Assembly (NCBI GenBank): GCA_963665845.2
Contig: OY762492.1
Location: forward strand, 1,152,001 to 1,216,000
Length of the DNA: 64,000 nt
Source: Candidatus Poribacteria bacterium
GTDB taxonomy: Bacteria > Poribacteria > WGA-4E > GCA-2687025
Direction: 5' to 3'
The notes beneath the pieces were generated by a model that was not told where the DNA came from, did no database searches, and worked only from the letters and a program-made list of their open reading frames with translations. How positions within the stretch are numbered: position 1 is the first letter of the stretch; each line of letters starts with the position of its first letter. Below are positions 4,852 through 50,314 of this stretch, in pieces. The translations under genes were made by a program, and so were the position numbers.

Positions 4852-4938
4852 GGGCGGGTGGTGGAAATGGCAGACACGATAGATTTAGGATCTATTGGGC
4901 GAAAGCCTGTAAGGGTTCAAATCCCTTCTCGCCCACCA
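4852..4938 (+). tRNA. tRNA-Leu (anticodon TAG)
   Basis: Cloverleaf with ATAGA-TTTAGGA-TCTAT anticodon arm, long variable arm, GGTTCAAATCC T-arm and encoded CCA. Confidence 0.97.
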
Positions 4939-8063: not shown

Positions 8064-8142
8064 CCGCTTGGCGAACGCGGACGTCGTCTGCGCCGCCTCT
8101 AGATTCCCGCTTACGCGGGAATGCATGTCCTCGCGGAAGGGC

Positions 8143-8293
8143 AGTACTTACAAGCGATGATTTTGATTTTTAGAGCGCCGTTTTGGAATGCGAAGGCTCT
8201 CTGGGAAAACTCTGGATTCCCGTTTGCGCGGGAATGACGTCAGGCGGCTCCGACGTTTTAAGTCAATCATGAAGTTCATCGCATGAGCGTACT
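8143..8293. mobile_element. MITE family B (TIR AGTAC..CATGCGATGA) nested in a family-A-like remnant
   Basis: agtacttacaagcgatga ... tcatcgcatgagcgtact inverted ends, flanked by an imperfect duplication cc(t/c)cgcggaag. Confidence 0.7.
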
Positions 8294-8316
8294 CCCCGCG
8301 GAAGCGGGGAACGAAC

Positions 8317-8484
8317 CTGACCTTACGTCTTTAGTTGGGACATGCCGGCGGACGAACGCAGACGTCTTCTGCGACGCCTCTAGATTCCCGCTTACGCGGG
8401 AATGACGGCTTGGTTAGCGGCGCCTTTTTCCCATGAATAAAGCGATCGTCGGTTCGAATGTCCCAACTTTAGGCGTGAGGTCAG
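8317..8484. mobile_element. MITE family A with an 8-bp target-site duplication GAACGAAC
   Basis: CTGACC...GGTCAG ends; GAACGAAC at 8309-8316 and 8485-8492. Confidence 0.9.
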
Positions 8485-8526
8485 GAACGAACTGGTTGAC
8501 AACGCCTTTCCCACTGGCGGCGTTGA

Positions 8527-10831: not shown

Positions 10832-10864
10832 GCGGGCGTCGCGTTCTCCTTCGTTTTTCCGCTG

Positions 10865-13055: not shown

Positions 13056-13098
13056 CTCTCTCCACCGGCTTATGATCAGTTGACGCGGCTTGCGGTTT

Positions 13099-14892: not shown

Positions 14893-14895
14893 TTT

Positions 14896-16080: not shown

Positions 16081-16081
16081 G

Positions 16082-18604
16082 CTAAGCGTTCCGCCCGCAG
16101 CACAGTTTGAATTTTTTGCCGCTGCCGCATGGACAGGGCGCGTTCCGCCCCACTTTTTTGCCGGTGGAGCTGCGGGGGGCGCGTCTCTGCGGCGGCGCCG
16201 CTCCGTTGCTCTTCCCGCCGGCTGTTGGCGCGGGCTGCTGCGGCGCCGTCTGAAGCTGAACGCGGTACACATACTGCGCGGCGTCCTCATAAATGCGCGT
16301 CAACATGTTTTGAAAAAGCGCAAAGCCCTCGTTCTGAAACTCAATGAGCGGATCGCGTCCGGCGTATCCTCTAAACCCGATCCCCTCCTGAATGTAATCG
16401 ATGTTGTGAAGATGCGACATCCAGTGGTAATCGATCCGATCCAGCAGGATGAGACGCTCGATCTCGCGCATGACCTCCTCGCCCAGCTCCCGCTCCCGCT
16501 CCTCATACCGCTTCTGGAAAATCTGAAGCAGCGTCTCTTGAATCTCATCGCGCGGCGTCTCTCGGTTGATGAGATGCGCCGGCGGAGGCTCCACGCCGCA
16601 CTGCCGCTCCATCCATGTCCGCAGCGCCTCGGCGTCCCACTCCAGCTGGTCGTCTTCGGGCAGCGTCTCGTCCATCTTGGCGGTGAGCGCATCCTCCACC
16701 ATCTGGAGCATGTCTTCGCGCAGGCTTTCCTGTTCGATGGCGCGGTCGCGCAGGTCGTACACCATATCGCGCTGCTGGCTCAAAACATTGTCGTATTTGA
16801 GGATCTGTTTGCGCGCCTCAAAATGGTTCTGTTCAACCCGCTCCTGCGCCTTCTGTATCGACTTGGAGAACCACTTATGCTCCATCGGGACATCCTCTTC
16901 GATGCGGAACTTGTCCATCATCCCCGCCATGCGGTCGGAGCCGAACTTGCGCATCAGGTCGTCTTCAAGCGACAGGTAGAAACGGGAGGCGCCGGGGTCG
17001 CCTTGACGCCCAGAACGCCCGCGCAGCTGGTTGTCGATGCGCCGCGAGTCATGCCGTTCGGTTCCGATCACATACAGCCCGCCCAGTTCGAGGACGCCGT
17101 CCGCCAGTTTGATGTCCACCCCGCGGCCCGCCATATTCGTTGCGATGGTGACCGCATGTTTTTGTCCGGCATGGGCGATGATTTCGCCCTCCTTCGTATG
17201 CTCCTTCGCGTTCAGGACGCGGTGGGCGATGCCGCGCTTTGTCAGCTCGCGGCTGAATTCAACCGACGCTTCAATGGAGATGGTGCCGACCAGAACAGGG
17301 CGGCCCGCGTTGAAATTCTCCGCTATGTCGTTGATGACCGCTTGTACCTTGCCTCGATGGTTGCGGAAGACCAGGTCGTCGCGGTCGTCCCGGATCATCG
17401 GCATGTTGGTCGGCACGACGACCACATCCAGCCCGTAGATTTGGTGAAACTCGCTCGCTTCGGTCGCCGCGGTACCTGTCATCCCAGACAGCTTTTCGTA
17501 CATGCGGAAATAGTTTTGAAAGGTGATGCGCGCCACCGTCTGGCTCTCTTCGACGATGCGCACCTTTTCTTTCGCCTCAATCGCTTGATGCAGCCCGTCG
17601 CTGAACCGGCGCTCCGGCTGCATGCGCCCCGTGAACTCGTCCACGATGACGACCCGCCCGTCTGTCACCACATAATCCACATCGTTTTGGTACAGATAAT
17701 GCGCGTTCACTGACTGCATGATGTGATGCAGCAGGTCGATATTTTCAGGGTCGTACAGGTTTTTTAAAGAGAAAGCGTTTTCAAGCAGGTCGATGCCGTC
17801 GTCGGTCAAGGAGGCGGAGCCGCGCTTGGAGCGTTTTTCATCGATCTCAAAATGCTTCTCTTTTTTCAAACGGGAGACGACGCGCGCGATGCGCGGATAT
17901 TCCGCTTTCTCCTTCCGCCGCTCCGAGATGATATGCGGCGTCCGCGCCTCGTCAATCAGGATGGAGTCCACCTCATCCACGATGGAGTAATGCAGTTCCC
18001 GCTGCGTCTTCTCTTCGATGGAGCGGGCGCTGCTGTGGTCGCGCAGATAATCGAACCCGAACTCGGAATTGGTGCCGTAGGTGATGTCGCATTCGTACGC
18101 CGCTTTTTTGACGCTTCGGGGGCGCCCCTCTAGGGTGATTCCGACCGTCATGCCGAGCGCCTTGTAGATCTGCCCCATCCAGTCGGCGTCTCTCTGCGCC
18201 AGAAACTCGTTCACCGTCACGACATGGACGCCGCGCCCGGTCAGCGCGTTCAGATAAACAGGCATCGTGGAGGTGAGCGTCTTGCCCTCCCCCGTCCGCA
18301 TTTCGGCGATGCGCCCTTGATGAAGAACAACTGCGCCGAGAATCTGAACGTCATACGGACGCTCGCCAATCTGCCGCCATGCCGTTTCGCGCACCACAGC
18401 GAACGCCTCCGGCAACAGATCGTCGGTCGTTTCGCCGTTGGAGAGCCGTTCCCGAAATTCTGCCGTCTTTCCCGACAGCTGTTCGTCTGTCAGGTTTTTC
18501 ACTGACGGCTCCAGCGCGTTCACCCGCTCCACAACATGGCGCAGTTTTTTCAGGTCGCGGTCGTTTTTCGATCCGACAATTTTTTCCAATACGTAGCCTA
18601 ACAT
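16082..18604 (-). CDS. secA: Preprotein translocase ATPase SecA
   Basis: MRTGEGKT, DEVDSILIDEARTP, TNMAGRG and C-terminal CPCGSGKKFKLCC. Confidence 0.98.
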   Translation of the reverse strand: MLGYVLEKIVGSKNDRDLKKLRHVVERVNALEPSVKNLTDEQLSGKTAEFRERLSNGETTDDLLPEAFAVVRETAWRQIGERPYDVQILGAVVLHQGRIAEMRTGEGKTLTSTMPVYLNALTGRGVHVVTVNEFLAQRDADWMGQIYKALGMTVGITLEGRPRSVKKAAYECDITYGTNSEFGFDYLRDHSSARSIEEKTQRELHYSIVDEVDSILIDEARTPHIISERRKEKAEYPRIARVVSRLKKEKHFEIDEKRSKRGSASLTDDGIDLLENAFSLKNLYDPENIDLLHHIMQSVNAHYLYQNDVDYVVTDGRVVIVDEFTGRMQPERRFSDGLHQAIEAKEKVRIVEESQTVARITFQNYFRMYEKLSGMTGTAATEASEFHQIYGLDVVVVPTNMPMIRDDRDDLVFRNHRGKVQAVINDIAENFNAGRPVLVGTISIEASVEFSRELTKRGIAHRVLNAKEHTKEGEIIAHAGQKHAVTIATNMAGRGVDIKLADGVLELGGLYVIGTERHDSRRIDNQLRGRSGRQGDPGASRFYLSLEDDLMRKFGSDRMAGMMDKFRIEEDVPMEHKWFSKSIQKAQERVEQNHFEARKQILKYDNVLSQQRDMVYDLRDRAIEQESLREDMLQMVEDALTAKMDETLPEDDQLEWDAEALRTWMERQCGVEPPPAHLINRETPRDEIQETLLQIFQKRYEERERELGEEVMREIERLILLDRIDYHWMSHLHNIDYIQEGIGFRGYAGRDPLIEFQNEGFALFQNMLTRIYEDAAQYVYRVQLQTAPQQPAPTAGGKSNGAAPPQRRAPRSSTGKKVGRNAPCPCGSGKKFKLCCGRNA

Positions 18605-19551
18605 GGCTCTACCTCGCCTTTCGCCTCCCCGTTCCTGCCGCTCTTCATTAAAACGTTGTCTCCCCAAATTCGTTGCCTTAAATCGATATAGATGATCGCG
18701 TTGCCGACCGAGACGCCGCTAAAGAGATACGCAGCGGACGCCCATAAGGTCAAGATCAACACGGACGCGCCGATCCAAACCCCAATCTGAAGCGGCAATT
18801 CATCAAGCGGCGCCGGCGGAGCCGACAACGAGAAAAAGCTGCCGAACAACGCAACAGACGCCTCCGCTATCCCGCCCAGCGCTGCAGCCTGCGTCAACAA
18901 AAACAGCCCCGCCAACGACGCCCCCGCAAAGAGAGACGCCGACAGCGCCGACATGAGCAGCGCGGCAACCTCATAAAAAAGAACGCGCCATCCCTGCGAC
19001 CAGCACATGACAACCAGCTGGTAGGAGGTTTCCATGCCGCTCTCTCCGCTGACGCCTGCGATAGACGGCAGCAACAGCAGACCGAACATCCATACAAACA
19101 GCGAGAACATCAGCAGCAAACCGACCAACAGCCCCGGTATGAGCGTCAGCATTCCCAGCCCCGTCCACCAGTTGCCGAGAAGTTTGCCGAGCGCCCCGCC
19201 GAGATACGCCAGTCCAAGAAGCGCCGCCGGTAGGAGCGTCAAGACGGCGAGCGGCGCCAGTACCGCTTTGAGCGTCCGCCAGGACGCCCGTTTTGCCTCC
19301 GCAAAAAAATCGCCCTCCAGCTGAAGGATCGTCAAGCGCGCCGAGGCGGCAGAGCCAGGGATCGCCGCCAGAGCCGCCGCGGCGCACACCAGCGCCGTCT
19401 TCATCGGCGTGAACGGACCCCAGAACCGCGCAACCGCCCATATGACCGCCAACGCCGCCAACGCCCCCGGCGCATGCAGCGCCATCTTCCGATCCGAGAA
19501 CGCCCATCTAGGGATATTGAGCAGGTCAAGCGCGCCGCCTCGCAGGCTCAT
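18598..19551 (-). CDS. Multi-pass membrane protein of unknown function
   Basis: Several hydrophobic segments; in an operon-like run between dapA and secA. Confidence 0.7.
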   Translation of the reverse strand: MSLRGGALDLLNIPRWAFSDRKMALHAPGALAALAVIWAVARFWGPFTPMKTALVCAAAALAAIPGSAASARLTILQLEGDFFAEAKRASWRTLKAVLAPLAVLTLLPAALLGLAYLGGALGKLLGNWWTGLGMLTLIPGLLVGLLLMFSLFVWMFGLLLLPSIAGVSGESGMETSYQLVVMCWSQGWRVLFYEVAALLMSALSASLFAGASLAGLFLLTQAAALGGIAEASVALFGSFFSLSAPPAPLDELPLQIGVWIGASVLILTLWASAAYLFSGVSVGNAIIYIDLRQRIWGDNVLMKSGRNGEAKGEVEPC

Positions 19552-32619: not shown

Positions 32620-32739
32620 GCCGCTTCCGCGGGGGCATGCGTTCCCGCCCCTTCGGTGAAACGCGCGGGAATCTAGAGGCGTCGCAGAAACCGCCCGCGT
32701 TCGCCCGCCGCCATGTCCCAACTTAAGACGTGAGGTCAG
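32620..32739. mobile_element. Partial MITE family A copy (reverse orientation)
   Basis: Ends in atgtcccaacttaagacgtgaggtcag. Confidence 0.75.
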
Positions 32740-32798
32740 AGGATAGATTGACAATCCAAGCGTATGGAGTATCATGCGTTAATGATAGGAGGAACGCC

Positions 32799-33842
32799 AT
32801 GAAAATCGCCATTGTCGGAGCGACCAGTTACACCAGCGTCGAATTGATACGCCTGCTCGCCGCGCATCCGGGCGGGATCGATCTTGCCGTTCTCACCTCG
32901 CGCACCGAAGCGGGCCGCCCCATCGTCGACTTCGCGCCGAACCTGCGCGGATACTGCGATTTGACGCTGGAGACGACCGCCGTTGAGACGCTGACAGGGC
33001 GCGTTGACGCCGCCGTACTTGCCGTCCCGCACCGCGCCGCGATGGAGTACGCCCCCGCGCTGCTGAACGAAGGCGTCCGCGTCCTGGATTTCAGCGCCGA
33101 CTACCGCCTCAAAGAGGTCTCCACCTATGAACGCTGGTACGACGCCGAGCATACCAGCCCCGAGCTGCTGCCGTCCGCCGTGTACGGTTTGCCGGAACTG
33201 TACCGTCAGAAAATCGCCGGCGCGGACCTTGTCGCCAATCCTGGCTGTTACCCGACGAGCGCCGTTTTTGCGTTACTTCCCGCCGTCGAGGAGCGTATGA
33301 TCGACATGGGCGGGATTGTTGTCGACTCGAAGTCTGGGCTGTCGGGCGCGGGGCGCAAGCTGAATGAAAAGATTCTGTTTTCGTCGCGGCAAGAAAATGT
33401 CGCCGCATACGGTATCGCCTCGCACCGCCACACGCCTGAAATGGAGCAGGAGCTGCAAGCGGCAAGCGGCAACCCTGATCTGCGCGTCGGGTTCACTCCC
33501 CATTATATGCCGATGACGCGCGGCATTCTGACGGCGGCTTATGCCCCCTTGACGCGCCCGCTTTCGCTGGAGGAGATTCATGCATTTTATGAGCGGCGCT
33601 ACGCGAATGAGCCGTTCATACAGACGCTCCCGCCGGGCGAATCCGCCGAAACGAAGGCGGTTTACGGCAGCAACAACGTCCATGTCGGCGTTGCGGTTGA
33701 TGAGCGCGTGAACAGGCTGATTGTCACGTGCGCGCTGGACAACCTCGGCAAAGGAGCCGCCGGCGCCGCGCTGCAGAACCTGAACCTGATGGCAGGGCTG
33801 GACGAGACGGCGGGGCTGCGCTTCCCGGGCGTCATGCCGTAG
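32799..33842 (+). CDS. argC: N-acetyl-gamma-glutamyl-phosphate reductase
   Basis: SADYRL, YGLPE, ANPGCYPT, SGLSGAG, HRHTPE and DNLGKGAAG motifs. Confidence 0.96.
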   Translation: MKIAIVGATSYTSVELIRLLAAHPGGIDLAVLTSRTEAGRPIVDFAPNLRGYCDLTLETTAVETLTGRVDAAVLAVPHRAAMEYAPALLNEGVRVLDFSADYRLKEVSTYERWYDAEHTSPELLPSAVYGLPELYRQKIAGADLVANPGCYPTSAVFALLPAVEERMIDMGGIVVDSKSGLSGAGRKLNEKILFSSRQENVAAYGIASHRHTPEMEQELQAASGNPDLRVGFTPHYMPMTRGILTAAYAPLTRPLSLEEIHAFYERRYANEPFIQTLPPGESAETKAVYGSNNVHVGVAVDERVNRLIVTCALDNLGKGAAGAALQNLNLMAGLDETAGLRFPGVMP

Positions 33843-33853
33843 AAAGACGCAGG

Positions 33854-35056
33854 ATGAACCTGAAAAATCGGACGCTGTTTATCGCGGACAATCTGGACAT
33901 CATGCGCGGGATCGATTCGGAGAGCGTCGACCTGATTTATCTGGACCCGCCTTTCAACAAGAAGAAGCGGTTTAAGGCGCCCATCGGATCCCCTGCTGAA
34001 GGGGCGACATTCAAGGACATTTGGACAGACGAAGACGTCAAAGAGGAATGGCGCGGAGAAATCGCTGCCCAGCATCAAGACCTGTACGGCGCAATCAAAT
34101 TGGTCGGCTCCATCTACGACGAGTCGATGGCGATCTACATGACGGCGATGTCGATCCGTCTTTTTGAAATGCAGCGCATCTTGAAAAAAACGGGCAGCGT
34201 CTATCTCCATTGCGATCCGACAGCGAGCCATTACCTGAAAATCTGCATGGACAGCATCTTCGGAAAATCCAGTTTCCAAAACGAAATCGCATGGGCTTAC
34301 CGCACAGGCGGCGTGAGTAAAAAACGATGGCCTCGAAAGCATGACACGATTCTGTTCTATGCAAGCTCGAACGCTTACCGCCATCAGCCGCCAAAGGAAA
34401 GAATCTATTACGAGAAACCGTTTTTTTCCCAAAACCAAGACGATGAAGGGCGCCATTACGCTGACGTCTATGTTCGAGACGTTTGGGACGACATTAAGCC
34501 GATTATCAACACATCCAAAGAGCGCACCGGCTGGCCGACGCAGAAGCCGCTGACGCTGTTAGAGCGCATTATCAAAGCCTCTTCGAACGAAGGGGATCTT
34601 GTGTTTGACCCGTTCTGCGGCTGCGCGACGGCATGCGTCGCCGCCGAACTTCTAGGGCGGCGTTGGGTCGGCATTGACATATCGGCCAGCGCCGAGGTGA
34701 TCACAAAATACCGCCTGGATGAGGCGCGGCATAATCTGGAAGGGACGCAAACCTTCGACCCTGAAGCGGATGTGATCGTCCTGCGCGAGCCGCCGAAGCG
34801 CACCGACATCCAGATTCCGAAGCCGATTGAACATAAACCGGCTCTCTACGGCAAACAGAACGGAGAATGCGCAGGCTGCAAGATTCATTTTCCGTATCGG
34901 AACATGACAATCGACCATATCCATCCGCGCGCTAGAGGCGGCGCCGACACGCCCGACAACTTGCAGCTGCTGTGCCACGCCTGCAACTCTGCCAAGGGAA
35001 CAGGGACGCAGGAGGAGCTGTTAGCGAAGTTGCGCGATCGGGGCGTTATTGAATAA
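33854..35056 (+). CDS. Beta-class DNA methyltransferase-HNH endonuclease fusion, copy 1
   Basis: DPPF motif IV, TQKP, DPFCGCAT motif I, then CxxC..DHIHP..GG..NLQLLCHACN. Confidence 0.9.
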   Translation: MNLKNRTLFIADNLDIMRGIDSESVDLIYLDPPFNKKKRFKAPIGSPAEGATFKDIWTDEDVKEEWRGEIAAQHQDLYGAIKLVGSIYDESMAIYMTAMSIRLFEMQRILKKTGSVYLHCDPTASHYLKICMDSIFGKSSFQNEIAWAYRTGGVSKKRWPRKHDTILFYASSNAYRHQPPKERIYYEKPFFSQNQDDEGRHYADVYVRDVWDDIKPIINTSKERTGWPTQKPLTLLERIIKASSNEGDLVFDPFCGCATACVAAELLGRRWVGIDISASAEVITKYRLDEARHNLEGTQTFDPEADVIVLREPPKRTDIQIPKPIEHKPALYGKQNGECAGCKIHFPYRNMTIDHIHPRARGGADTPDNLQLLCHACNSAKGTGTQEELLAKLRDRGVIE

Positions 35057-35068
35057 GGGAGAGCGAAC

Positions 35069-36280
35069 ATGAACCTGAAAAATCGGACGCTGTTTATCGC
35101 CGACAATCTGGACATCATGCGCGGGATCGATTCGGAGAGCGTTGACCTGATCTATCTTGACCCGCCCTTCAACACGAAGCGGGAGTATAAAGCTCCGATC
35201 GGATCGCCCGCTGAAGGCGCGACTTTCAAAGACATCTGGACAGACGAAGACGTCAAGGAAGAGTGGCGCGGGGAAATCGCTGCCCAGCATCAAGACCTGT
35301 ATGAAGTCATTAAAGCGGCGGACGCGCTCTACGATCCATCGATGTCGATCTACATGACCGCTATGGCTGTCCGTCTTTTTGAAATGAAGCGCATTTTGAA
35401 AAAAACGGGGTGCGTTTACCTGCATTGCGACCCGACAGCGAGCCACTACCTTAAGATCATTATGGACTCGATCTTCAAGGCAGGGAATTTCCAAAGCGAG
35501 GTGATATGGGGGTATCGGACGCAGGGCGTGAGCAAAGCGAGATGGCCCAGAAAGCATGATGTGCTTTTACATTACGGCGGCGGAAAGAAGCCGACCTTCC
35601 ATCCGCAGATGCAGCGACTCATCTATGAAAAGCCGTTTCGCCATACGAAAATAGACGAGGAGGGGCGGCATTATGCGGATGTGTATGTGCGGGATGTTTG
35701 GGACGACGACCCTGAAACGAAGGCTCTAATCAGCCAGTCTCTAGAGCGCACCGGCTGGCCGACGCAGAAACCGTTGGCGCTGCTGAAGCGCATTATCAAG
35801 GCGTCCTCCAACGAAGGCGATCTTGTGTTTGATCCGTTCTGCGGCTGCGCGACCGCATGCGTCGCCGCGGAGCTTCTAGGGCGGCGATGGGTCGGCATCG
35901 ATATTTCTCCAAGCGCGGAGGTCATCACGAAATACCGGCTGGACGAGGCGCGGCATAACCTGGAAGGAACGCAAACCTTCGACCCAGAAGCGGATGTGAT
36001 CGTTCTGCGCGAACCGCCGAAACGTACCGATATTCAGATTCCAAAGCCGATTGAACATAAACCGGCTCTCTACGGCAAACAGAACGGAGAATGCACAGGC
36101 TGCAAGATTCATTTTCCGTATCGGAACATGACGATCGACCATATCCATCCGCGCGCTAGAGGCGGCGCCGACACGCCCGACAACCTGCAGCTGCTGTGCC
36201 ATGCATGCAACTCGGCTAAAGGAACCGGGACCCAAGAGGAGCTGTTAGTGAAGTTGCGCGAGCGCGGCGTTATCAAATAA
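35069..36280 (+). CDS. Beta-class DNA methyltransferase-HNH fusion, copy 2
   Basis: Same architecture with a different central segment (35516-35743). Confidence 0.9.
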   Translation: MNLKNRTLFIADNLDIMRGIDSESVDLIYLDPPFNTKREYKAPIGSPAEGATFKDIWTDEDVKEEWRGEIAAQHQDLYEVIKAADALYDPSMSIYMTAMAVRLFEMKRILKKTGCVYLHCDPTASHYLKIIMDSIFKAGNFQSEVIWGYRTQGVSKARWPRKHDVLLHYGGGKKPTFHPQMQRLIYEKPFRHTKIDEEGRHYADVYVRDVWDDDPETKALISQSLERTGWPTQKPLALLKRIIKASSNEGDLVFDPFCGCATACVAAELLGRRWVGIDISPSAEVITKYRLDEARHNLEGTQTFDPEADVIVLREPPKRTDIQIPKPIEHKPALYGKQNGECTGCKIHFPYRNMTIDHIHPRARGGADTPDNLQLLCHACNSAKGTGTQEELLVKLRERGVIK

Positions 36281-36292
36281 GGGAGAGCGAAC

Positions 36293-37555
36293 ATGAACCT
36301 GAAAAATCGGACGCTGTTTATCGCCGACAATCTGGACATCATGCGCGGGATCGATTCGGAGAGCGTTGACCTGATTTATCTGGACCCGCCTTTCAACAAG
36401 AAAAAGCGGTTTAAGGCGCCCATCGGATCTCCCGCTGAAGGGGCGACATTCAAGGACATTTGGACAGACGAAGACGTCAAAGAAGAGTGGCGCGGGGAAA
36501 TCGCGTCGCGGCATCAAGACCTGTATGACAACATCCAAACGGCGGGAAAGATTTACGATCCGTCAATGGCGATCTACATGACGGCGATGTCGGTGCGCCT
36601 CTTTGAAATGCGGCGGATTTTGAAAAAGACCGGCAGCATCTACCTGCATTGCGACCAGACGGCGAACCATTACCTGAAAGTCTGTATGGACGCCATCTTC
36701 GGCAAAAACAACTTTCGCAACGAGATCATCTGGGCGTATAAGGGTCCGTCCAACGTCCGCCGCTGGTTTCCTAGAAAACATGATGTCGTCCTGTTTTATG
36801 TCAAGTCGAGAGCCGCTGCCTTCAATGCGGACGCTGTCCGCATCCCTTACAGCGAATCGTTCACTGCCAGAAGACAATACGACGAAGGCGAAGCGGGCAT
36901 CACAGCTGGCTATGCTGACGGCAGAACAGAAGAGGAAGTCTCGGAGCTGTTTGGGAATGGAAAAATTATCGAAGACTGGTGGGACGATATACCGAGCGGC
37001 GGACATATCAGCCGAAAAGAGCGCACCGGCTGGCCGACGCAGAAGCCGCTCAAGCTGTTAGACCGCGTCATCAAGGCGTCCTCCAACGAGGGCGATCTTG
37101 TGTTTGATCCGTTCTGCGGCTGCGCGACAGCATGCGTCGCCGCGGAACTTCTGGGCAGGCGTTGGGTCGGCATCGACATATCGGCCAGCGCGGAGGTGAT
37201 CACAAAATACCGCCTGGATGAGGCGCGGCATAACCTGGAAGGGACGCAAACCTTCGATCCTGAAGCGGATGTGATCGTTCTGCGCGAACCGCCGAAGCGT
37301 ACCGATATTCAGATTCCGAAGCCGATTGAACATAAACCGGCGCTCTACGGCAAACAGAACGGAGAATGCGCAGGCTGCAAGATTCATTTTCCGTATCGGA
37401 ATATGACAATTGACCATATACGCCCGCGCGCTAGAGGCGGCGTTGACACCGTCGACAACCTGCAGCTGCTGTGCCACGCCTGCAACTCCGCCAAAGGGAC
37501 CGGGACGCAGGAGGAGCTGATAGCGAAGTTGCGCGAGCGGGGCGTTATTGAATGA
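36293..37555 (+). CDS. Beta-class DNA methyltransferase-HNH fusion, copy 3
   Basis: Same architecture with a different, longer central segment (36740-37018). Confidence 0.9.
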   Translation: MNLKNRTLFIADNLDIMRGIDSESVDLIYLDPPFNKKKRFKAPIGSPAEGATFKDIWTDEDVKEEWRGEIASRHQDLYDNIQTAGKIYDPSMAIYMTAMSVRLFEMRRILKKTGSIYLHCDQTANHYLKVCMDAIFGKNNFRNEIIWAYKGPSNVRRWFPRKHDVVLFYVKSRAAAFNADAVRIPYSESFTARRQYDEGEAGITAGYADGRTEEEVSELFGNGKIIEDWWDDIPSGGHISRKERTGWPTQKPLKLLDRVIKASSNEGDLVFDPFCGCATACVAAELLGRRWVGIDISASAEVITKYRLDEARHNLEGTQTFDPEADVIVLREPPKRTDIQIPKPIEHKPALYGKQNGECAGCKIHFPYRNMTIDHIRPRARGGVDTVDNLQLLCHACNSAKGTGTQEELIAKLRERGVIE

Positions 37556-37627
37556 GCGGCGCTCAATGGACAACTGCGAGCTTTTACGTTATTCTTATGG
37601 TGTCAGGCGAAATAGAAAGGATGCAGC

Positions 37628-37933
37628 ATGGCGACCATTACGCGCGTTTCCGGCGGATTTAAGAACGATGCGCTGTCTTTGAAAATTACAAGCGGATCGT
37701 TGATTGAGTGGACAGACAGCCGCGGCGTCGGAAACTGGATCGTAGTGGAAGCGAACGGAACGCTTGAAGGCCAATGCTCATTCGGCGGCGGTCTTGGCGA
37801 TGTGAAGCTGATTTCTGAAGACAAGGTGTTTGTCGGGCAAGCGCTGATCAAACACGCGCAGATAACGCCGATGTCGACACGATTTGATCTGCTGGGAACG
37901 GACGATCTTGTACGTCAAAGGCTGGAGCCGTGA
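37628..37933 (+). CDS. Hypothetical 101-aa protein inside the MTase-HNH array
   Basis: Upstream AAGGA; its stop overlaps the start of copy 4 (GTGA). Confidence 0.6.
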   Translation: MATITRVSGGFKNDALSLKITSGSLIEWTDSRGVGNWIVVEANGTLEGQCSFGGGLGDVKLISEDKVFVGQALIKHAQITPMSTRFDLLGTDDLVRQRLEP

Positions 37934-39150
37934 ATCTCAAAAATCGCACGCTGTTTATCGCCGACAATCTGGACATCATGCGCGGGATCGATTCCGAAAG
38001 CGTTGACCTGATTTATCTTGACCCGCCCTTCAACACGAAACGGGAGTATAAAGCCCCCATCGGATCGCCCGCTGAAGGCGCGACTTTCAAAGACATTTGG
38101 ACAGACGAAGACGTCAAAGAAGAATGGCGCGGAGAGATCGCGTCGCGGCATCAGGATTTATACGAAGCCATCAAAGCGACCGAGACGATTTACGACAGGT
38201 CAATGGCGATCTACATGACCTCCATGTCGATCCGTCTTTTTGAGATGCGGCGCATCTTGAAAGATACGGGAAGCATTTACCTGCATTGCGACCCGACAGC
38301 GAGCCACTACCTCAAAACATGCATGGACAGCATTTTTGGAAAATCCAATTTCCGAAATGAGATCGTGTGGTGGTACTACAATGTCGCCGTCACCAGCAAA
38401 AAATTCTACGGCAGAAAGCACGACATCATCTTATTCTACTCAAAGAAATCGAACTGGACATTCAATCCTGACAGCGTCCGCGTTCCTTACGCGGAGGACA
38501 GCAACTGGGTCAAAAATGCGGAAAGCTACGGAGACGAGCGGTATAAGCCAGACGAGAGAGGAAAATTGTCGTCCGACGTTTTTGCGATTCCAACCATAAA
38601 CAACATGGCTAAAGAGCGCACGGGTTGGCCGACTCAAAAGCCGTTGGCTCTTTTGGATCGGATCATCAAAGCGTCCTCCAAAGAAGGCGATTATGTGTTC
38701 GATCCGTTTTGCGGCTGCGCGACAGCATGCGTCGCCGCGGAACTTCTGGGCAGGCGGTGGGTCGGCATCGACATCTCCCCCAGCGCGGAGGTGATCACAA
38801 AATACCGCTTAGACGAAGCCCGCCATACGCTGGAAGGAACGCAGACCTTCGACCCTGAAGCGGATGTCATCGTCCTGCGCGAACCGCCGAAACGAACCGA
38901 CATCAAAGAGCCTCGCCCCGCCGATTTCAAACCGCAGCTCTACAGTAAGCAGAACGGAGAATGCACAGGCTGCAGGATTCATTTTCCGTATCGGAACATG
39001 ACGATAGACCATATCCGCGCAAAGTCGAGGGGCGGGCCGGACACCGTCGACAACCTGCAGCTGCTTTGCCACGCCTGTAACTCCGCCAAAGGGACCGGGA
39101 CGCAGGAGGAGCTGTTAGCGAAGTTGCGAGAGCGCGGCGTTATCGAATAA
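37930..39150 (+). CDS. Beta-class DNA methyltransferase-HNH fusion, copy 4
   Basis: Same architecture; central segment 38377-38613. Confidence 0.9.
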   Translation: MNLKNRTLFIADNLDIMRGIDSESVDLIYLDPPFNTKREYKAPIGSPAEGATFKDIWTDEDVKEEWRGEIASRHQDLYEAIKATETIYDRSMAIYMTSMSIRLFEMRRILKDTGSIYLHCDPTASHYLKTCMDSIFGKSNFRNEIVWWYYNVAVTSKKFYGRKHDIILFYSKKSNWTFNPDSVRVPYAEDSNWVKNAESYGDERYKPDERGKLSSDVFAIPTINNMAKERTGWPTQKPLALLDRIIKASSKEGDYVFDPFCGCATACVAAELLGRRWVGIDISPSAEVITKYRLDEARHTLEGTQTFDPEADVIVLREPPKRTDIKEPRPADFKPQLYSKQNGECTGCRIHFPYRNMTIDHIRAKSRGGPDTVDNLQLLCHACNSAKGTGTQEELLAKLRERGVIE

Positions 39151-39279: not shown

Positions 39280-39744
39280 ATGTGGGTGGTAAAAGAGGAT
39301 AAAGTTCATCTTTACTTTGTGGTATGGAATTCTCATATCCAGATCGCGGAGGACAACAACGCAAAACATGGGCGATCCGACAGCGCATTCGATTACGCCT
39401 TGAGAGAAATTCCAGGCATTGAACATCATGATGGGAGTCATGACGTTACCGCTGCATATCCGTTCTCTGATGGGGAACTCGTTCACGGAGAACGCTTAAA
39501 GGCATGGCTCAAAGCAGAAAGAGACGGCGACGATGTTGGTCCGATCGTTGTCGATATTACGAAGGATGGCAACGAGTGGAAAGCGGAGATTATTAACTTT
39601 GAACCTGACGCGGATGGAAGTCGCAGCAAAATCTATGGCAACAGAAGAAATACAAGCGACGATCCGCAAAGAGGTAGGAATAATTTAATAAGATTTTTGG
39701 AAGAATTAGCGGAAATAAAGCGAAATCAGAATGAACGCAGCTGA
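39280..39744 (+). CDS. Hypothetical protein, lower GC than its flanks
   Basis: 154-aa ORF with an AAGGGG RBS; no recognisable motif. Confidence 0.6.
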   Translation: MWVVKEDKVHLYFVVWNSHIQIAEDNNAKHGRSDSAFDYALREIPGIEHHDGSHDVTAAYPFSDGELVHGERLKAWLKAERDGDDVGPIVVDITKDGNEWKAEIINFEPDADGSRSKIYGNRRNTSDDPQRGRNNLIRFLEELAEIKRNQNERS

Positions 39745-39855: not shown

Positions 39856-40800
39856 GTGAATATCCTCGTCCGCGGCGCATTCTACCGCCAATTTGAACAG
39901 CGGCTCAAAGAGGCGGCGCCGAACGCCCGCTTCATCCTCTTTGAAGACCGCGCGGAGATGCTGGAGCGCCTCCCAAAAGCGGACGCGCTCTACGGCGGCT
40001 CCCCGCGCGAGGACATGCTGGACCGCTGCGCCAAACTGCGCTGGATCCACATGCGCAGCGCCGGCGTCGACCGCTACTTTCCCCAACAGCTCGCCCAACG
40101 CGGCATCGCCCTCACGAACGGAAGCGGCGCCTACGACATCCCCATCGCCGAGCATGTGTTTGCGATGGCGCTGTCCCTCACCCGACAGATCAACCTGCAT
40201 ATACGCAACCAGCTTGAAAAGCGGTGGGAGCGCGGCGATAGACCCGCCGACCTGTACGGCAAAAACCTCGGCGTCTACGGCATGGGTTCCATCGGAACGC
40301 GCGTCGCGCAGATTGGAGCCGCCTTTGGAATGAAAGCGTACGGCGTCGCCCGCCGCGGACGTTCAAAGCCTGACTTTGCCGAAGCGTTATGGACGCCTGA
40401 TCGTTTAGACGACCTGCTGCGCCTGTCCGATCTGTTCGTCGTCTGCCTTCCGCTGACGAACGCGACGCGCAATTGCGTCGGCGCGCGCGAGTTTGGGTTG
40501 ATGAAGCAGACGGCGCTGTTCTTCAATATCGGGCGCGGCGCGACGGTGAACGCCGCCGCCTTGACGCGCGCCTTGACCGAAGGGCAGATTGCAGGCGCAG
40601 GGCTGGATGTAACAAACCCAGAGCCGCTGCCCGTAGAAAGCCCGTTGTGGGACATGCCGAATGTGATCTTGACGCCGCATGTCTCCGGGTCGTCCGCCGT
40701 CTCGGCGGAACGGGGGGAGGAGATCGCCATCGAGAATATACGCCGCTTCGCCGCCGGCGAACCGCTTTTGAATCTTGTCGACCCGCAGCATGGCTATTAA
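39856..40800 (+). CDS. D-2-hydroxyacid dehydrogenase family protein
   Basis: GMGSIG, NIGRG, AGLDV and LTPHVSG motifs. Confidence 0.92.
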   Translation: MNILVRGAFYRQFEQRLKEAAPNARFILFEDRAEMLERLPKADALYGGSPREDMLDRCAKLRWIHMRSAGVDRYFPQQLAQRGIALTNGSGAYDIPIAEHVFAMALSLTRQINLHIRNQLEKRWERGDRPADLYGKNLGVYGMGSIGTRVAQIGAAFGMKAYGVARRGRSKPDFAEALWTPDRLDDLLRLSDLFVVCLPLTNATRNCVGAREFGLMKQTALFFNIGRGATVNAAALTRALTEGQIAGAGLDVTNPEPLPVESPLWDMPNVILTPHVSGSSAVSAERGEEIAIENIRRFAAGEPLLNLVDPQHGY

Positions 40801-43207: not shown

Positions 43208-46200
43208 CTATTTCAACACAATCATGCGCCGAAGCCCCGTGAACGAACCCGCCTCAATGCGGACATAATAAATGCCGCTGGCGACAGGTTCGCCCAGGCT
43301 GTTCCGTCCGTCCCAATGGGCGGCTTTGGCGCGGCTGCGGTAGGCGCCCGCCGGCAACTGCCCAAGCTCCAACACGCGCACGGTTTGACCTGACGAGTTG
43401 TAGATCGTCACCCTCACGCGGCTTGAATCTGTCAACTCAAACGGGATCCAGGTTTCTGGGTTGAACGGGTTTGGGTAGTTCGGAAGCAGCGCCGGCTCGC
43501 TCGGTATGGCGGTCGCCAGCAGTTTGCCGATGTCCATGCGCCCCGAGGCGACAGACTCCTTGTCCAGAACGACGCGAACCGTTTGAACGCCGCCGAATGT
43601 CCCGCTCGAATCGAACACACGCAGATCAAAAGCGTCGCCGATGGCGTAGCTGTCCCCTGTCAACGCCAGAAGCGGCAGCGAGAAACGGCCAGAAATGGAG
43701 CCGCTGCCCGCCAGGTCAGACGCTGTCTGTCCAGTCTGCAGGTTCGCAATGGAAATCTCTAACCCGTTCAGCGGCGCGAGATTGTCCTCCCGCGCGACGG
43801 AACCCTCCACCACAAGAAGCGGCGTTGAGGACGGGTCGTACGCGACCGCCTCCGCGGACGCAGCGGCAGTCGCCGCGTCGTTTGACCATGCGGAGCCGTC
43901 GAAGGTCAAGACGGTTTCCGCTGCCGCCACGATAAAATAACCGTCGCCGCCCTTCGCCGCGTCGGTCGAGTCGGTGGAGAGCTGAAAAAGGGGGCTGCCG
44001 GCATCGTCATGCTTCAAGGCAATCACGGTCAGCGGAACGGTTGAAAGATCCGCCAAATCCCCGATGGTCTCAACGGCGCCGGCGCGCGTGACGCCGATCA
44101 TATTGATGCCGGCGCGCAGCGGAACTTCAGGCTTCAAAAGGCCGCCCATGAACGTGACCGACTTGGAATTCTTCATACTCACAAGCGCGCCCGCATGATC
44201 CAACAACGCCATTTCGCCAGCGGGGCCTGGAATGCCGGTGTAAGCGGCAAATTGTCCGTCTAGTTTCTGCGTCAGAATGTAGAGAACATCGCCGCTCCCG
44301 CCCAGCTTGTTGTACAGGTCGCCAACATTCTTTAAGCCGTCCACCTTCACAGGAACATGGATCAGATTCAACCCCTTTTTGAGCTGAAGCGTAAAGGAAG
44401 TCGTAGGCGCAAGTTCAACGAAGTAAATTTTTGTGACGCTTTCATTTCCATCAGCGGCGTTGTCCGGAATGATGACAATGACAATGCCTGAGCTGGACGG
44501 CGCAATTGTCGCTGTGTAGGAAGCGCCGGAGCCTGCGAACTCGGTTACGGTCCCGTTGACCACATCAATATCCGACTCTTCGAAGCCCGCGACCGCCTGA
44601 CTGAATTCGATCTCCAATTCAAATGGACCTGTTTGCGCCCCGCTCGGACCGGAGACGGTCACAGTTGGGCGGGCTGCAGGAACTTCAATGTCGCTGATGT
44701 CCCAGATCCGAATCGTGTTGTCGTCGCTGCCGCTGGCAAGCGACTGACCATCCGGTGAATACGCCACGGAACTGACACTACCCGTATGCCCTTGGAGGGT
44801 TCGTATCAGCGCTCCCGTGTTGGCGTTCCAGATGCGTATCTCGTTAAAGCTGCCGCCGGCGATGGTCTGACCATCCGGTGAATACGCCACGGAAGCGATC
44901 AAATGCCCATGTCCTTGGAGGGTTCGTATCAGCGCTCCCGTGTTGGCGTTCCAGATGCGGATCGTGTCGCTGCCGCTGGCGATGGTCTGACCATCCGGTG
45001 AATACGCCACAGAAAAGACCGAAATCGTATGTCGGATGGTTCTGATATGCGCTCCCGTGTTGGCGTTCCAGATCCGAACCGTGTTGTCTCTGCTGCCGCT
45101 GGCGATCGTCTGGCCATCCGGTGAATATGCCACAGAAAAGACATCACCAATACGCTCTGAAAGCCTTCGTATCTGCGCTCCCGTGTTGGCGTTCCAGATA
45201 CGTATCGTGTCGTCATAGTCGCCGCTGGCGATCGTCTGACCATCCGGTGAATACGCCACAGAAAAGACCCAACTCGTATGTCCCTGGAGGGTTCGTATCT
45301 GCGCTCCTGTGTTGGCGTTCCAGATCCGAACCGTGGAGTCGTAGCTGCCGCTGGCGAGCGACTGACCGCCCGGAGAATACGCCACAGAACTGACCCAATA
45401 CGTATGTCCCTGGAGGGTTCGTATCTGCGCTCCTGTGTTGGCGTTCCAGATCCGAATCGTGTTGTCAAGGCTGCCGCTGGCGAGCGACTGACCATCCGGT
45501 GAATACGCCACAGACAAGACTGCAGCCGTATGTCCTGTAAGGACCCGCGGCCCTCCGGTATCAGCGTTGACAGAGTAGGAGTTGGAAGCGGTGTTGTTCC
45601 CCGCGGCGTTGGCGGGGACGCTCACTGTAACGGTTCCGGAGCTGGACGGCTGAATCGTCGCCGTGTAGCTTGCGCCGCTGACGGCAAGGTCGATCACCGA
45701 GCCGTTCGTCACAACGATGTCGGACGACGTGAAACCTGTGACGGCGGAGCTGAACGCGATCGTCACATTGAACGCGCCTGTTTGCGTCCCGCTCGGACCG
45801 GAGACGGTCACAGTTGGGCGGGCTGCAGGAACTTCAATGTCGCTGATGTCCCAGAGGCGTATCGTCCTGTGGCCGTCCCCGCTGGCGAGCGACTGACCAT
45901 CCGGCGCATACGCTACGGAATTGACATCTCCCGCATGACCTGTAAGCGTTCGTATGTGCGCGCCAGTGTTGGCGTTCCAGATGCGTATCTTGGCGTCGTA
46001 GCCGCCGCTGGCGATCGTCTGACCATCCGGTGAATACGCCACAGACCTGACCCCATCCGTATGCCCTGTAAGCGTTCGTATCTGCGCTCCCGTGTTGGTG
46101 TTCCAGATGCGTATGCCTCTCCAGTTGCCGCTGGCGATCGTTTGACCATCCGGTGAATACGCCACAGAATAGACAGCAATCGTATCTCCTGTCAGCGTTC

Positions 46201-49200
46201 GTATCAGCGCTCCCGTGTTGGCGTTCCAGATGCGTATCGCGCCGTCATAGCTGCCGCTGGCGATCGTTTGACCATCCGGTGAATAAGCCACGGAACTGAC
46301 ACCATTCGTATGCCCTGTCAGCGTTCGTATCAGCGCTCCCGTGCTGGCGTTCCAGATGCGCATCGTGTTGTCGCGGCTGCCGCTGGCGATGGTCTGACCA
46401 TCCGGTGAATACGCCACGGAAAGGACCCGATCTGTATGTCCCTGGATGGTTCGTATCTGCGCGCCTGTGCTGGCGTTCCAGATGCGTATCCTGCCTCCCC
46501 AGCTGCCGCTGGCGATCGTCTGGCCGTCCGGTGAATACGCCACGGACGAGACACCAGACGTATGCCCTGTCAGCTCTCGTATCTGCGCTCCCGTGTTGGG
46601 GTTCCATATGCGTATCGAGCTGCTGGAGCTGGCGAGCGACTGACCATCCGGTGAATACGTCACGGAAAAGACACCGCCGTTATGGGCTGTCCAGACTCGC
46701 GGCCCTCCGGTTTCAGCGTTGACAGAGTAGGCGCTGGAGGCGGTGTTGTTCCCCGCGGCGTTGGCGGGAACTCTCACTGTAACGGCTCCGGAGCTGGACG
46801 GCTGAATCGTCGCCGTGTAGGATGCGCCGCTGCCGGTCAAGCTTGTCACGGAGCCGTTCGTCACAACGATGTCGGACGACGTGAAACCTGTGACGGCGGA
46901 GCTGAACGCGATCGTCACATTGAACGCGCCTGTTTGCGTACCGCTCGGACCAGACACGGTTGCCGTTGGGCGGGCTGCAGGAACTTCAATGTCGCTGATG
47001 TCCCAGATCCGAACCGTGTTGTCGTCGCTGCCGCTGGCGAGCGACCGACCGTCCGGTGAATACGCCACGGTACGCGCCACAGCCGTATGCCCTGTAAGCG
47101 TTCGTATCAGCGCGCCAGTATTGGCGTTCCAGATCTGTACTATACCTCCCCCACTGTTGCTGCCCCCGCCGCCGGCGATCGTCTGACCGTCCGGAGAATA
47201 CGTCACAGAAAAGACAGCTCTATGCTGTTGAGTTTGGAGATGCGCTCCCGTGTTGGCGTTCCAGATGCGGATCGGCGGGTTGCCGCCGCTGCCGCTGACG
47301 ATCGTCTGACCATCCGGCGCATACGCCACGGACAAGACATTGCCCGTATGTCCTGAAAGCGTTCGTATCTGCGCGCCAGTGTTGGCGTTCCAGATGCGGA
47401 TCGCGGCGTCGTAGTCGCTGCTGGCGATCGTCTGACCATCCGGCGCATACGCCACGGAACTGACCCAATCCGTATGTCCCTGAAGGGTTCGTATCAGCGC
47501 TCCTGTGTTGGCGTTCCAGATGCGTATCGTGTTGTCCCAGCTGCCGCTGGCGATGGTCTGACCATCCGGAGAATACGCCACGGAACTGATGTGACTTGTA
47601 TGCCCTTGGAGAGTTCGTATCAGCGCTCCTGTGTTGGCGTTCCAGATGCGTATCGTCTTGTCAACGCTGCCGCTGGCGATCGTCTGACCATTCGGAGAAT
47701 ACGCCACTGACATGACATAATGTGTATGCCCTGTCAGAGTTCGTATCAGCGCTCCCGTGTTGGCGTTCCAGATGCGTATCGTGCGGTCGCTGCTGGCGCT
47801 GGCGATCGTCTGACCGTTCGGTGAATACGCCACAGACACGACTCCATCCGTATGCCCTGTCAGGACCCGCGGTCCTCCGGTATCAGCGTTGGCAGAGTAG
47901 GTATTGGAAGCGGTGTTGTTCCCCGCGGCGTTGGCGGGGACGCTCACCGTAACAGTTCCGGAGCTGGACGGTTGAATCGTCGCCGTGTAGCTTGCCCCGC
48001 TGCCGGTAAAGCTTGTCACGGAGCCGTTCGTCACAACGATGTCGGACGATGTGAAATCCGTGACGGCGGAGCTGAATGAGATCGTCACATTGAACGCGCC
48101 TGTTTGCGTCCCGCTCGGACCGGAGACGGTCACAGTTGGGCGGGTTGCAGGAACTTCAATGTCGCTGATGTCCCAGATGCGTATCGTTCTGTCGCGACTG
48201 CAGCTGGCGAGCGACTGACCATTCGGCGCATACGCCACAGAAAGGACCCAATCCGTATGTCCCTGGAGGGTTCTGATATGCGCTCCTGTGTTGGCGTTCC
48301 AGATGCGTATCGTATCGTCAATGCTGCCGCTGGCGATCGTCTGACCATCCGGCGCATACGCCACAGAATTGACCCAATCAGTATGTCCCTGGAGGGTTCG
48401 TATCAGCGCTCCTGTGTTGGCGTTCCAGATGCGTATCGTATCGTCGTCGCTGCCGCTGGCGATCGTCTGACCATCCGGCGCATACGCCACGGAATAGATA
48501 AAACGCCCATGTCCTTGGAGGGTTCTGATATGCGCTCCTGTGTTGGCGTTCCAGATCCGGATCGTGTTGTCAAGGCTGCCGCTGGCGAGCGACTGACCAT
48601 CCGGCGCATACGCCGCGGACCTGACCACACCCGTATGCCCTGTAAGCGTTCGTATCAGCGCGCCAGTGTTGGCGTTCCAGATCCGAACCGTGTTGTCGTA
48701 TCTGCCGCTGGCGATCGTCTGACCATCCGGTGAATACGCCACAGAACTGACCCGAACTGTATGCCCCTGGAGGGTTTGTATATGCGCTCCCGTGTTGGCG
48801 TTCCAGATCCGGATCGTGTTGTCAAGGCTGCCGCTGGCGATCGACTGACCATCCGGCGCATACGCCACAGACAAGACATAATCCGTATGCCCTTGGAGGG
48901 TTCGTATATGCGCGCCAGTGTTGGCGTTCCAGATGCGTATCGTGTTGTCCCAGCCGCTGCTGGCGATCGTCTGACCGTTCGGTGAATACGCCACAGACAC
49001 GACTCCATCCGTATGCCCTGTCAGGACCCGCGGCCCTCCGGTTTCAGCGTTGACAGAGTAGGTATTGGAAGCGGTGTTGTTCCCCGCGGCGTTGGCGGGG
49101 ACGCTCACCGTAACGGCTCCGGAGCTGGATGGCTGAATGGTCGCCGTGTAGCTGGCGCCGCTGCCGGTCAAGCTTGTCACGGAGCCGTTTGTCACAGTGA

Positions 49201-50314
49201 TGTCGGACGACGTGAAACCTGTGACGGCGGAGCTGAACGCGATCGTCACATTGAACGCGCTTGTTTGCGTCCCGCTCGGACCGGACACGGTTGCCGTTGG
49301 GGTGATGTCCCAGAGGCGTATCGTGTTGTCGCCGCCGCCGCTGGCGATCGTCTCACCATCCGGTGAATACGCCACGGAACTGATGTGACTTGTATGTCCT
49401 TGGAGGGTTCTAATATGCGCTCCTGTGCTGGCGTTCCATATCCGAATCGTGTTTTCACTGCCGCCGCTGGCGATCGTTTCACCATCCGGCGCATACGCCA
49501 CGGAATTGACGGTAAAAATCGTAGGTCCTTGGAGGGTTCGTATCAGCGCGCCTGTGTTGGCGTTCCAGAGCCGAACCGTGGAGTCCCAGCTGCCGCTGGC
49601 GAGCGTCTGACCATCCGGAGAATATGCCACGGACCAGACATCATCCCCATGCCCTGTCAGCGTTCGTATCAGCGCTCCCGTGCTGGCGTTCCAGAGCCGA
49701 ACCGTGGTGTCGTAGCCCCCGCTGGCGATTGCCTGACCATCCGGAGAATACGTCAAGGATTGGACCCGATCTGTATGTCCTGTCAGCGTTCTGATATGCG
49801 CTCCTGTGCTGGCGTTCCAGAGCCGAATCTTGGAGTCGAAGCCGCCGCTGGCGAGCGTCTGACCATCCGGTGAATACGCTAAGGACAAGACTCCGTTCGT
49901 ATGTCCTGTCAGCGTTCTGATATGCGCTCCCGTGCTGGCGTTCCAGATACGAATCGTGGATTCGTTGTCGTTGTCGCTGCCGCTGGCGATGGTCTGACCA
50001 TCCGGCGAGTACGCTACGGGTCTGACCGTACTCGTATGCCCTGTCAGCGTTCTGATATGCGCTGCTGTGTTGGCGTTCCAGATGCGAACCGTGTTGTCGT
50101 AGCTGCCGCTGGCGATGGTCTGACCATCCGGCGAATACGCCACGGACACTACAACACCTGTATGCCCTGTCAGGACCTGTTGCGCGCTGCTGTTTTCAGC
50201 AACGAGGCAGACGCTCAGAAGCGCAGCCGCTAGGACAGCGGACCAAGCGGGGGTTACGTCACGTGTGAATTTCATGTGCGCGACACTCTTGATGTTGAAT
50301 CTGTGGAACCTCAT
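43208..50314 (-). CDS. Giant probably secreted protein: 5 x (7-blade WD40 propeller + Ig-like domain) plus a C-terminal FlgD-Ig/sorting-like domain
   Basis: 35 repeats of [30 protein letters not shown] and five VSGPSG.QT..F Ig-like modules. Signal-peptide-like N-terminus and C-terminal [27 protein letters not shown]. The start may be 50275. Confidence 0.92.

Follow-up and report, generated by a model that had tools for sequence, protein, structure and literature searches.

Restriction-modification enzymes that unite methyltransferase and nuclease in one chain include MmeI and Eco57I, and the known Type IIC, IIG and IIL enzymes are gamma-class proteins of about 900-1200 amino acids (aa) with an N-terminal PD-(D/E)xK nuclease and a C-terminal target-recognition domain (TRD). 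In the Type IIS systems MboII, HpyAV and HpyAII a beta-class methylase is accompanied by an HNH nuclease that has a gene and a recognition domain of its own. Further single-chain enzymes are BcgI, TstI and the TspDTI family (PMC12707154). Beta-class methyltransferases act as dimers in which the TRD of one subunit faces the active site of the other (PMC7544214), and in Type III mod genes recombination at conserved flanking sequence carries the TRD from one allele to another and also between non-orthologous loci (PMC3467074). Here we consider a stretch of 64,000 nucleotides from a Candidatus Poribacteria genome (contig OY762492.1, positions 1,152,001 to 1,216,000; the whole stretch is called the window below) in which four genes on the same strand each encode a beta-class methyltransferase fused to a C-terminal HNH domain (copies 1-4; Table 1). 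On balance we favour reading this array as a battery of restriction-modification enzymes, each a single chain of Type IIC-like design, whose TRDs move as they do in Type III mod genes.

The likeness to Types IIC, IIG and IIL lies in the joining of methyltransferase and nuclease in one polypeptide, the lack of a partner gene and a single TRD that presumably serves both activities. In contrast to those enzymes, the proteins described here are beta-class, carry their TRD internally, end in a small HNH or Mrr-like tail and measure only 400-560 aa; a first-pass annotation of the window had already set the layout apart from Type IIG/IIL, and the beta order and C-terminal HNH agree with that. With Type III Mod proteins they share a beta-class methyltransferase, a mobile TRD and incongruent trees (PMC3467074), but the nuclease is fused, the genome has 40 loci where Type III mod genes number a handful, and the array has no Res partner. 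The earlier statement that no separate Res gene is present holds for the window, which contains none of the genome's 14 PF04851 matches; the closest to the array is ~90 kb away, and one match has another family gene at a distance of ~2 kb. The array members are not Type IIG/IIL or Type III enzymes. Motif order, fold and an expected obligate dimer link them to CcrM, M.BceJIV, M.MboIIA and M.RsrI (PMC7544214), from which they differ by a family insert after motif IV and by the fused nuclease tail, the solved relatives being listed without one. They have in common with the Type IIS systems the pairing of a beta-class methylase with HNH chemistry, but here the nuclease is a 75-aa tail without a recognition domain. 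The active site of that tail (CxxC-DH-N-CxxCN) is that of McrA and of Gmet_0936 (PDB 4H9D), a protein that has no companion methyltransferase and nicks weakly (PMC3765158). The ShiLan element was considered as an instance of the same arrangement and proved different, as its HNH sits out of frame within a phage methylase (PMC11855218). We found no description of a beta-class methyltransferase-HNH fusion family or expansion in a literature search whose scope excluded subscription journals, REBASE and InterPro.

The four ORFs (400, 403, 420 and 406 aa) are all intact and lie where they were first annotated. Copies 2, 3 and 4 are 84, 82 and 78% identical to copy 1, respectively. The central segments read in frame as 73, 76, 93 and 79 aa at the coordinates originally proposed and are 25-56% identical between copies, whereas the N-terminal part of the frame (N-frame) is 80-86%, the C-frame (the motif X-I part) with its linker 90-97% and the last 75 aa 83-95% identical. 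The claim of a constant frame stands for these parts and fails at residues ~70-101 of the N-frame, which also vary. That of a tandem battery likewise needs amending: an identical 12-bp spacer containing GGGAG links copies 1-3, whereas copy 4 has a GTG start and a 101-aa ORF stands between it and copy 3. The array has a GC content of 51-55% against ~60% in its surroundings.

Domain searches place PF01555 at residues 25-280/300 (E 1e-39 to 3e-50) and PF01844, an HNH family, in the last 60-80 residues (E 2e-14 to 5e-13) of all four proteins, in each case above the cut-offs. The order of motifs in copy 1, with DPPF (motif IV, residues 31-34) followed by the variable segment (148-221) and DPFCG (motif I, 252-256), is that of the beta class (PMC7544214), and the variable segment sits in the beta-class TRD position, between the NEIxW motif and the GWPTQKP and DPFCG motifs. 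A structure predicted from 117 sequences (pLDDT 87) retrieved CcrM as the top Foldseek match, together with M.BceJIV, M.MboIIA and M.RsrI (E 3e-16 to 8e-14, probability 1.00), and a sequence search returned the same relatives. Both the beta-class layout and the TRD position that had been proposed are borne out by these results. Among the 25 best of 73-74 models, PADLOC-DB 2.0 gave only MTase_II, MTase_III and orphan MTase hits, all over the methyltransferase part.

The C-terminus had been called a zinc-binding HNH/HNN nuclease domain, and its alignment with Gmet_0936, the HNH domains of Cas9 and IscB, and McrA agrees with this. All four copies retain the HNN zinc-ribbon set (two CxxC, catalytic D-H, structural N and metal-binding N/H); the D-H, N and CxxCN residues match D53-H54-N68-N77 of Gmet_0936, where mutation of the corresponding residues lowers or abolishes nicking (PMC3765158). 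Of 117 aligned relatives, chosen for closeness to copy 1, 114 have all eight HNH and zinc residues intact. In the same alignment the catalytic D-H and N are kept in 116-117 rows, more strictly than the surrounding fold, and motifs IV and I vary little or not at all. Sorted by motif, 149 more distant representatives comprise 99 with a full HNH, 12 with an altered one, 32 with other tails, five with short tails and one with an Mrr-like tail. Five relatives flagged for a stop inside the match (L189-L193) had intact HNH ORFs on inspection. Over 10 pairs among copies 1-4 and the orthologue in a sister species, dN/dS lay at 0.03-0.11 in the motif X-I part, 0.07-0.18 in the N-frame and 0.08-0.22 in the HNH part; the TRD is likewise under purifying selection (w=0.07). 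We saw no sign of phase variation at homopolymers, the four copies containing no run of at least 7 G/C or at least 8 A/T; the single run among 41 family genes lies at a mis-called start.

The first-pass annotation inferred a compact multi-specificity defence or epigenetic array; the array is, however, neither a special nor a stand-alone system. The array accounts for only four of 40 complete or near-complete family genes on the chromosome of this genome (G000), and similar clusters recur elsewhere. The tails of the 40 genes divide into 23 HNH (with the full motif in 22), 15 Mrr-like (DxGVDG..QVK, recognised as Pfam Mrr_cat in 5 of 6 tested) and two truncated ones, so that a nuclease tail is kept in 38 and its active site is intact in 37. 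At 50% identity their TRDs form 38 clusters, against 15 clusters of frames at 80%, and the whole genome has 60 PF01555 matches against a single PF00145 match. One further family gene lies on a contig of a second strain: contigs C2 and C3 of the assembly are 97.4-97.5% copies of C1:1159054-1171431 (window 7054-19431) and C1:1286347-1300671, and come from that strain. The C3 copy of one family gene has a frameshift directly before the HNH. A 1598-aa ORF (P0130) contains three tandem methyltransferase modules of the family with different TRDs, no nuclease tail and a P-loop motif in its N-terminal part; it may represent either a multispecific methylase or several genes merged in gene calling. Beyond this genome, 120 of 151 Poribacteria genomes match a profile of the 117 sequences at 1e-60, a search in which 12 candidates were scored per genome and whose matches may include other tails. 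Copy 1 retrieves 3,327 clusters (50% identity) at 1e-30, methyltransferase-only relatives included; such relatives occur in phages, and short-tailed ones in Dehalococcoidia. None of the 72,556 plasmid and 50,697 phage records searched covers 80% of the protein.

TRD and frame have evolved separately. Over 741 pairs from 39 G000 genes, TRD identity is uncorrelated with frame identity (rho 0.02) whereas frame and tail identities go together (rho 0.63); the pairs are not independent, and two genes left unsplit by the first pattern entered only the later count of 38 clusters. Pairs with 90-98% identical frames have TRDs that are 12-45% identical. Of 39 frames chosen for a tree, the eight of argC type, those of the kind found at the array, form one branch (100/100). 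The TRD tree, a quick tree with long branches, needs five changes for the same eight genes, and a topology that unites them is rejected (AU p=1.6e-8). One argC-type gene (P0009) has a TRD that groups with that of an Mrr-tailed G000 gene, and the TRD of copy 2 is 77-90% identical to TRDs sitting in frames of only ~70% identity. The copy-1 TRD type reappears at 64-72% in records of Chloroflexota, Acidobacteriota and Actinobacteriota type, in N-frames that are 32-53% identical and before tails that are HNH, Mrr-like or short; since the search used a pattern derived from the TRD, the number of these loci gives no frequency. The clearest single case is a gene (L090) of the sister species G001 (89% nucleotide identity to G000). 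Its frame is 84-96% identical to that of one G000 gene in 90-nt windows while its TRD is 42-48% identical; to a second G000 gene, which has a different frame, it is 92-94% identical in the TRD only. This gene shows a clean TRD swap between different frames. Seven of the 16 complete G001 genes have a flank syntenic with a same-frame G000 gene, and in six of these the TRD differs (12-36%), the seventh being the orthologue of copy 1. Such comparisons show that TRDs travel between frames as cassettes, the process already published for Type III mod genes (PMC3467074).

The array itself tells a quieter story. At the same locus G001 has a single gene, a 92% orthologue of copy 1 with the copy-1 TRD, whose N-terminal part is nearer to copy 2 and which is followed by a different small ORF; the suggested comparison of the argC locus across relatives thus revealed a variable copy number. 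Synonymous distances between the four copies are mostly 0.3-1.3, as large as the distances to the G001 gene, and the duplications must therefore be old. Orthologues of copies 2, 3 and 4 in other assemblies retain both N-frame (93-97%) and TRD (90-96%), and the members of the pairs orthologous to 2+3 and to 3+4 lie on contigs of equal length, probably one and the same contig for each pair. The HNH tails behave differently: those of copies 1 and 2 are 95% identical, against 83-87% between copy 2 and its orthologues, and the tails of the 2+3 pair of another assembly reach 99%. Informative sites are clustered in a mosaic pattern (p=0.0008; frame only, 0.017). TRDs are thus kept, tails, being more alike within than between genomes, are homogenised, and copies come and go. 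Diversification by TRD exchange, as first proposed, thus finds support in the tree incongruence and in the L090 swap, but the TRDs within the array are, by these comparisons, stable orthologous types common to other assemblies, with no current swapping. Independent clusters with different TRDs occur in two other Poribacteria genomes, G114 (three in tandem) and G071 (three), where N-frames are 89-99% and TRDs 20-42% identical, and G109 has a fresh duplicate at 98% identity. A second tandem array in G000 consists of three methyltransferase-Mrr_cat genes with different TRDs (C1:2909149-2913625; L074:3150-7626), in the place of which G001 has a single gene with yet another TRD.

We are confident that the array is not an assembly repeat, since the DNA of its constant parts has diverged between copies (81-92% identical, i.e. 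8-19% different) and its unique parts are found at a depth like that of the flanks. Read contigs from three samples cover the unique segments without mismatch and at single-copy depth; these samples belong to one study, which possibly includes the source of the assembly. In run X1 the depths were 21-32 for the flanks, 30 for TRD2, 27 for TRD3, 30 for the spacer between copies 3 and 4 and 30 for TRD4, and for TRD1 a contig is listed for run X3. None of the read contigs listed covers the array end to end.

Under the restriction-modification reading, each gene, an old tandem duplicate, would encode a one-protein enzyme that methylates its own motif and cuts where this motif is unmethylated. By comparison with known beta-class enzymes the protein would be a dimer, with the TRD of one subunit reading the site and the catalytic domain of the other methylating it; two HNH domains would therefore meet, and different paralogues might pair into bispecific heterodimers. 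If Type IIC enzymes are a guide, the small HNH, which lacks a recognition domain, would be aimed by the TRD and restrained on host DNA either by faster methylation or by a requirement for multi-site assembly; cutting by Type IIC enzymes may be limited by assembly (PMC12707154). The array would have arisen by tandem duplication, followed by acquisition of a new TRD through recombination at the conserved flanks and selection for the added specificity, with later crossovers adding or dropping copies. What speaks most strongly for cutting is the presence of two unrelated nuclease folds, HNH and Mrr-like, in the same slot of one methyltransferase, with putative active sites intact in nearly all genes, which points to a need for cutting. 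More speculatively, and with less confidence than we attach to the battery itself, up to ~38 active single-chain enzymes per cell could form, in sponge Poribacteria and their neighbours, a recombining restriction repertoire in which beta-methyltransferase frame, TRD cassette and HNH or Mrr-like tail are interchangeable. It is to the same tentative degree possible that the TRD cassettes are a stock common to several phyla, carried about by IS1595 elements, and that tandem arrays are the nurseries in which a duplicate acquires a new TRD; near-identical frames could then work as bispecific heterodimers.

Several observations weigh against the restriction-modification reading. The nearest stand-alone HNH structure, Gmet_0936, is a weak Mn-dependent nickase (PMC3765158). 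Different TRDs need not mean different motifs, and those of copies 1 and 2 may recognise related sites. Members without a nuclease or with a damaged one exist: two of the 40 G000 genes are truncated, one of the 23 HNH domains is damaged, DH is changed to DR in one G071 copy and Dehalococcoidia have their short-tailed members. The reading also has to account for how 38 co-resident predicted cutters would avoid damaging their own host, and one-flank synteny is weak evidence for TRD replacement in genomes as rearranged as these. Finally, G000 strongly avoids certain words (GGCC at 0.15, GDGCHC-type words at 0.05-0.23), but its mean palindrome avoidance is no stronger than that of G030 and G028, two Poribacteria without a family match at 1e-60 (that is, without full-length matches; 200-kb samples each), and G000 and G001 avoid the same words despite differing TRD sets. 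No restriction footprint attributable to the family was found in this word-avoidance comparison. CYCGRG-, ACGCGT-, CTNAG- and ACNGT-type words are also very strongly avoided in G000, even though the genome's single PF00145 match is the one C5 methyltransferase found in it, beside the 60 PF01555 matches.

The same evidence can be arranged differently. The genes might be selfish, self-diversifying elements with an active methyltransferase, whose HNH nicks DNA for retention (addiction) or for recombination that spreads copies and swaps TRDs, defence being a by-product. Relatives with the copy-1 TRD type do ride as passengers on IS1595 transporter insertion sequences, which have terminal inverted repeats and an NF033547 transposase: a record of Vicinamibacterales (L029-L032:6939-9697) holds four copies of a 2.76-kb unit at 99.9% identity, three of the four with 8-bp target duplications, and one of Dehalococcoidia (L057-L059:6849-9712) three identical copies of a 2.86-kb unit, one of them with a duplication. 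The 40 copies per genome, the mosaic sites, the tails homogenised within genomes and the nickase activity of the closest HNH structure (PMC3765158) would fit too. We nevertheless consider this account unlikely. No family gene in G000 lies less than 2.6 kb from an IS1595 transposase and the nearest to the array is more than 71 kb away; synteny breaks, counted on the G000 side, show no excess near family genes (9 of 320 block ends, 7.4 expected); and TRDs under purifying selection, conserved at 90-96% across assemblies, are what useful specificities would be expected to look like. An IS1595 origin of the array is itself unsupported, as there are no transposase or inverted repeats nearby.

Alternatively, the proteins may be protective or regulatory methylases that only methylate, the HNH serving as a weakly active DNA-binding or dimerisation module like the C-terminal domain of CcrM. 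That domain of the top fold match binds DNA non-specifically (PMC6787082), and both the methyltransferase-only relatives in phages and Dehalococcoidia and the word-avoidance comparison without a footprint would be in keeping with such a role. The catalytic D-H and N are, however, conserved more strictly than the fold around them, and in 15 genes the HNH is replaced by an unrelated PD-(D/E)xK-type tail, which together make methylation alone distinctly unlikely. Still less credence is due to a modification-dependent or abortive nuclease of Mrr or McrA kind, in which the methyltransferase would be a sensor and the tail would cut foreign-marked DNA, or cut broadly when the enzyme is inhibited: the tails do resemble McrA-type HNH and Mrr catalytic domains, but these catalytic domains are generic and come here without a modification-reading module, and motifs IV and I are as nearly invariant as in active methylases. 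As for an assembly artefact or a neutral recent duplication, to which the two small second-strain contigs and the lack of a listed spanning read contig might point, the synonymous divergence of most constant parts, the single-copy depth of the unique segments in three samples and the orthologues of each copy in other assemblies largely refute it, and we give it next to no weight.

Gene order is extremely scrambled between G000 and G001. Compared with 1.58 Mb of G001 (L106-L185), G000 has 160 breakpoints and a median block of 5.3 kb, where some breaks may stem from tile edges or dropped small blocks. An interspersed repeat of ~120 bp is present at 367 loci in G000, one of them in the window, and 107 of the 320 block ends have a copy no more than 300 bp away (for random positions, 21 on average and at most 37 in 500 draws); because block ends cluster at its copies, the repeat marks rearrangement breaks. 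Family genes as drivers of rearrangement were rejected on the G000 count given above. In G001, 12 of 16 family genes fall in synteny gaps against 36% of random windows, a count inflated by dropped small blocks (the argC gene, for one, is collinear). Close to the array, the predicted promoter that precedes argC may serve both this gene and the array. The 101-aa ORF had no family match above cut-off, and neither the rest of the genome nor the other loci compared hold another copy of it, and family and atlas searches with the small ORFs of the array gave no match above 0.84. The slot of the 154-aa ORF is occupied in G001 by an unrelated ORF of 190 aa.

Table 1. Features of the array and of other parts of the window (window coordinates; TRD boundaries are those of the present analysis).
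Feature	Coordinates	Strand	Remarks
Copy 1	33854..35056	+	beta-class N6A/N4C methyltransferase with C-terminal HNH, 400 aa
Copy 1 motifs	DPPF 33944-33955; DPFCG 34607-34621; CxxC-DH-N-CxxCN 34868-34987	+	
Copy 1 TRD	34295..34519	+	target-recognition segment
Copy 2	35069..36280	+	403 aa; HNH core 36092-36211; its cluster is formed by 7 near-identical proteins across assemblies
Copy 2 TRD	35510..35743	+	56% to TRD 1
Copy 3	36293..37555	+	420 aa; HNH core 37367-37486
Copy 3 TRD	36734..37018	+	95-96% in orthologues P0007 and P0128
101-aa ORF	37628..37933	+	between copies 3 and 4; overlaps the GTG start of copy 4
Copy 4	37930..39150	+	406 aa, GTG start; HNH core 38962-39081; most diverged frame
Copy 4 TRD	38371..38613	+	90% in orthologue P0129
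154-aa ORF	39280..39744	+	low GC (45%); variable slot after copy 4
argC-type semialdehyde dehydrogenase gene	32730..33842	+	upstream anchor, 11 bp before copy 1; presumably argC, from its domain set
2-hydroxyacid dehydrogenase gene	39856..40800	+	downstream anchor, common to G001
Sigma-70-like promoter match	32748..32775	+	predicted; 11/12, best in region; ahead of argC
Interspersed repeat	32621-32741		~120 bp
2368-aa protein	43208-50314	-	WD40-like repeat blocks with spacer domains, a kind typical of Poribacteria
Large SRP RNA	4110-4375	-	
tRNA	4852-4935	+	

Movement of TRDs between beta-class genes is already published (PMC3467074); new here are the per-genome census, the formal test of incongruence, the clean swap between frames, the finding that the array is old and evolves in concert, and the repeated occurrence of such arrays. 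Sponge symbionts are enriched in restriction-modification genes (PMC5649159, PMC5099237), and if the enzymes do cut, the family would give a molecular account of this enrichment and would amount to a large class, so far uncharacterised, of one-protein restriction-modification enzymes of the smallest size, with members in 120 of the 151 Poribacteria genomes searched and in further sponge-type phyla. The array is a natural experiment in which four nearly identical frames carry four TRDs, making specificity, heterodimer formation and the avoidance of host cutting addressable. It may also provide a compact, re-aimable methylase or nuclease scaffold along with many new specificities. Should the recombining repertoire described above prove true, the family would represent an unnamed single-chain class in which a 400-aa scaffold is re-aimed by the swap of an 80-aa cassette.

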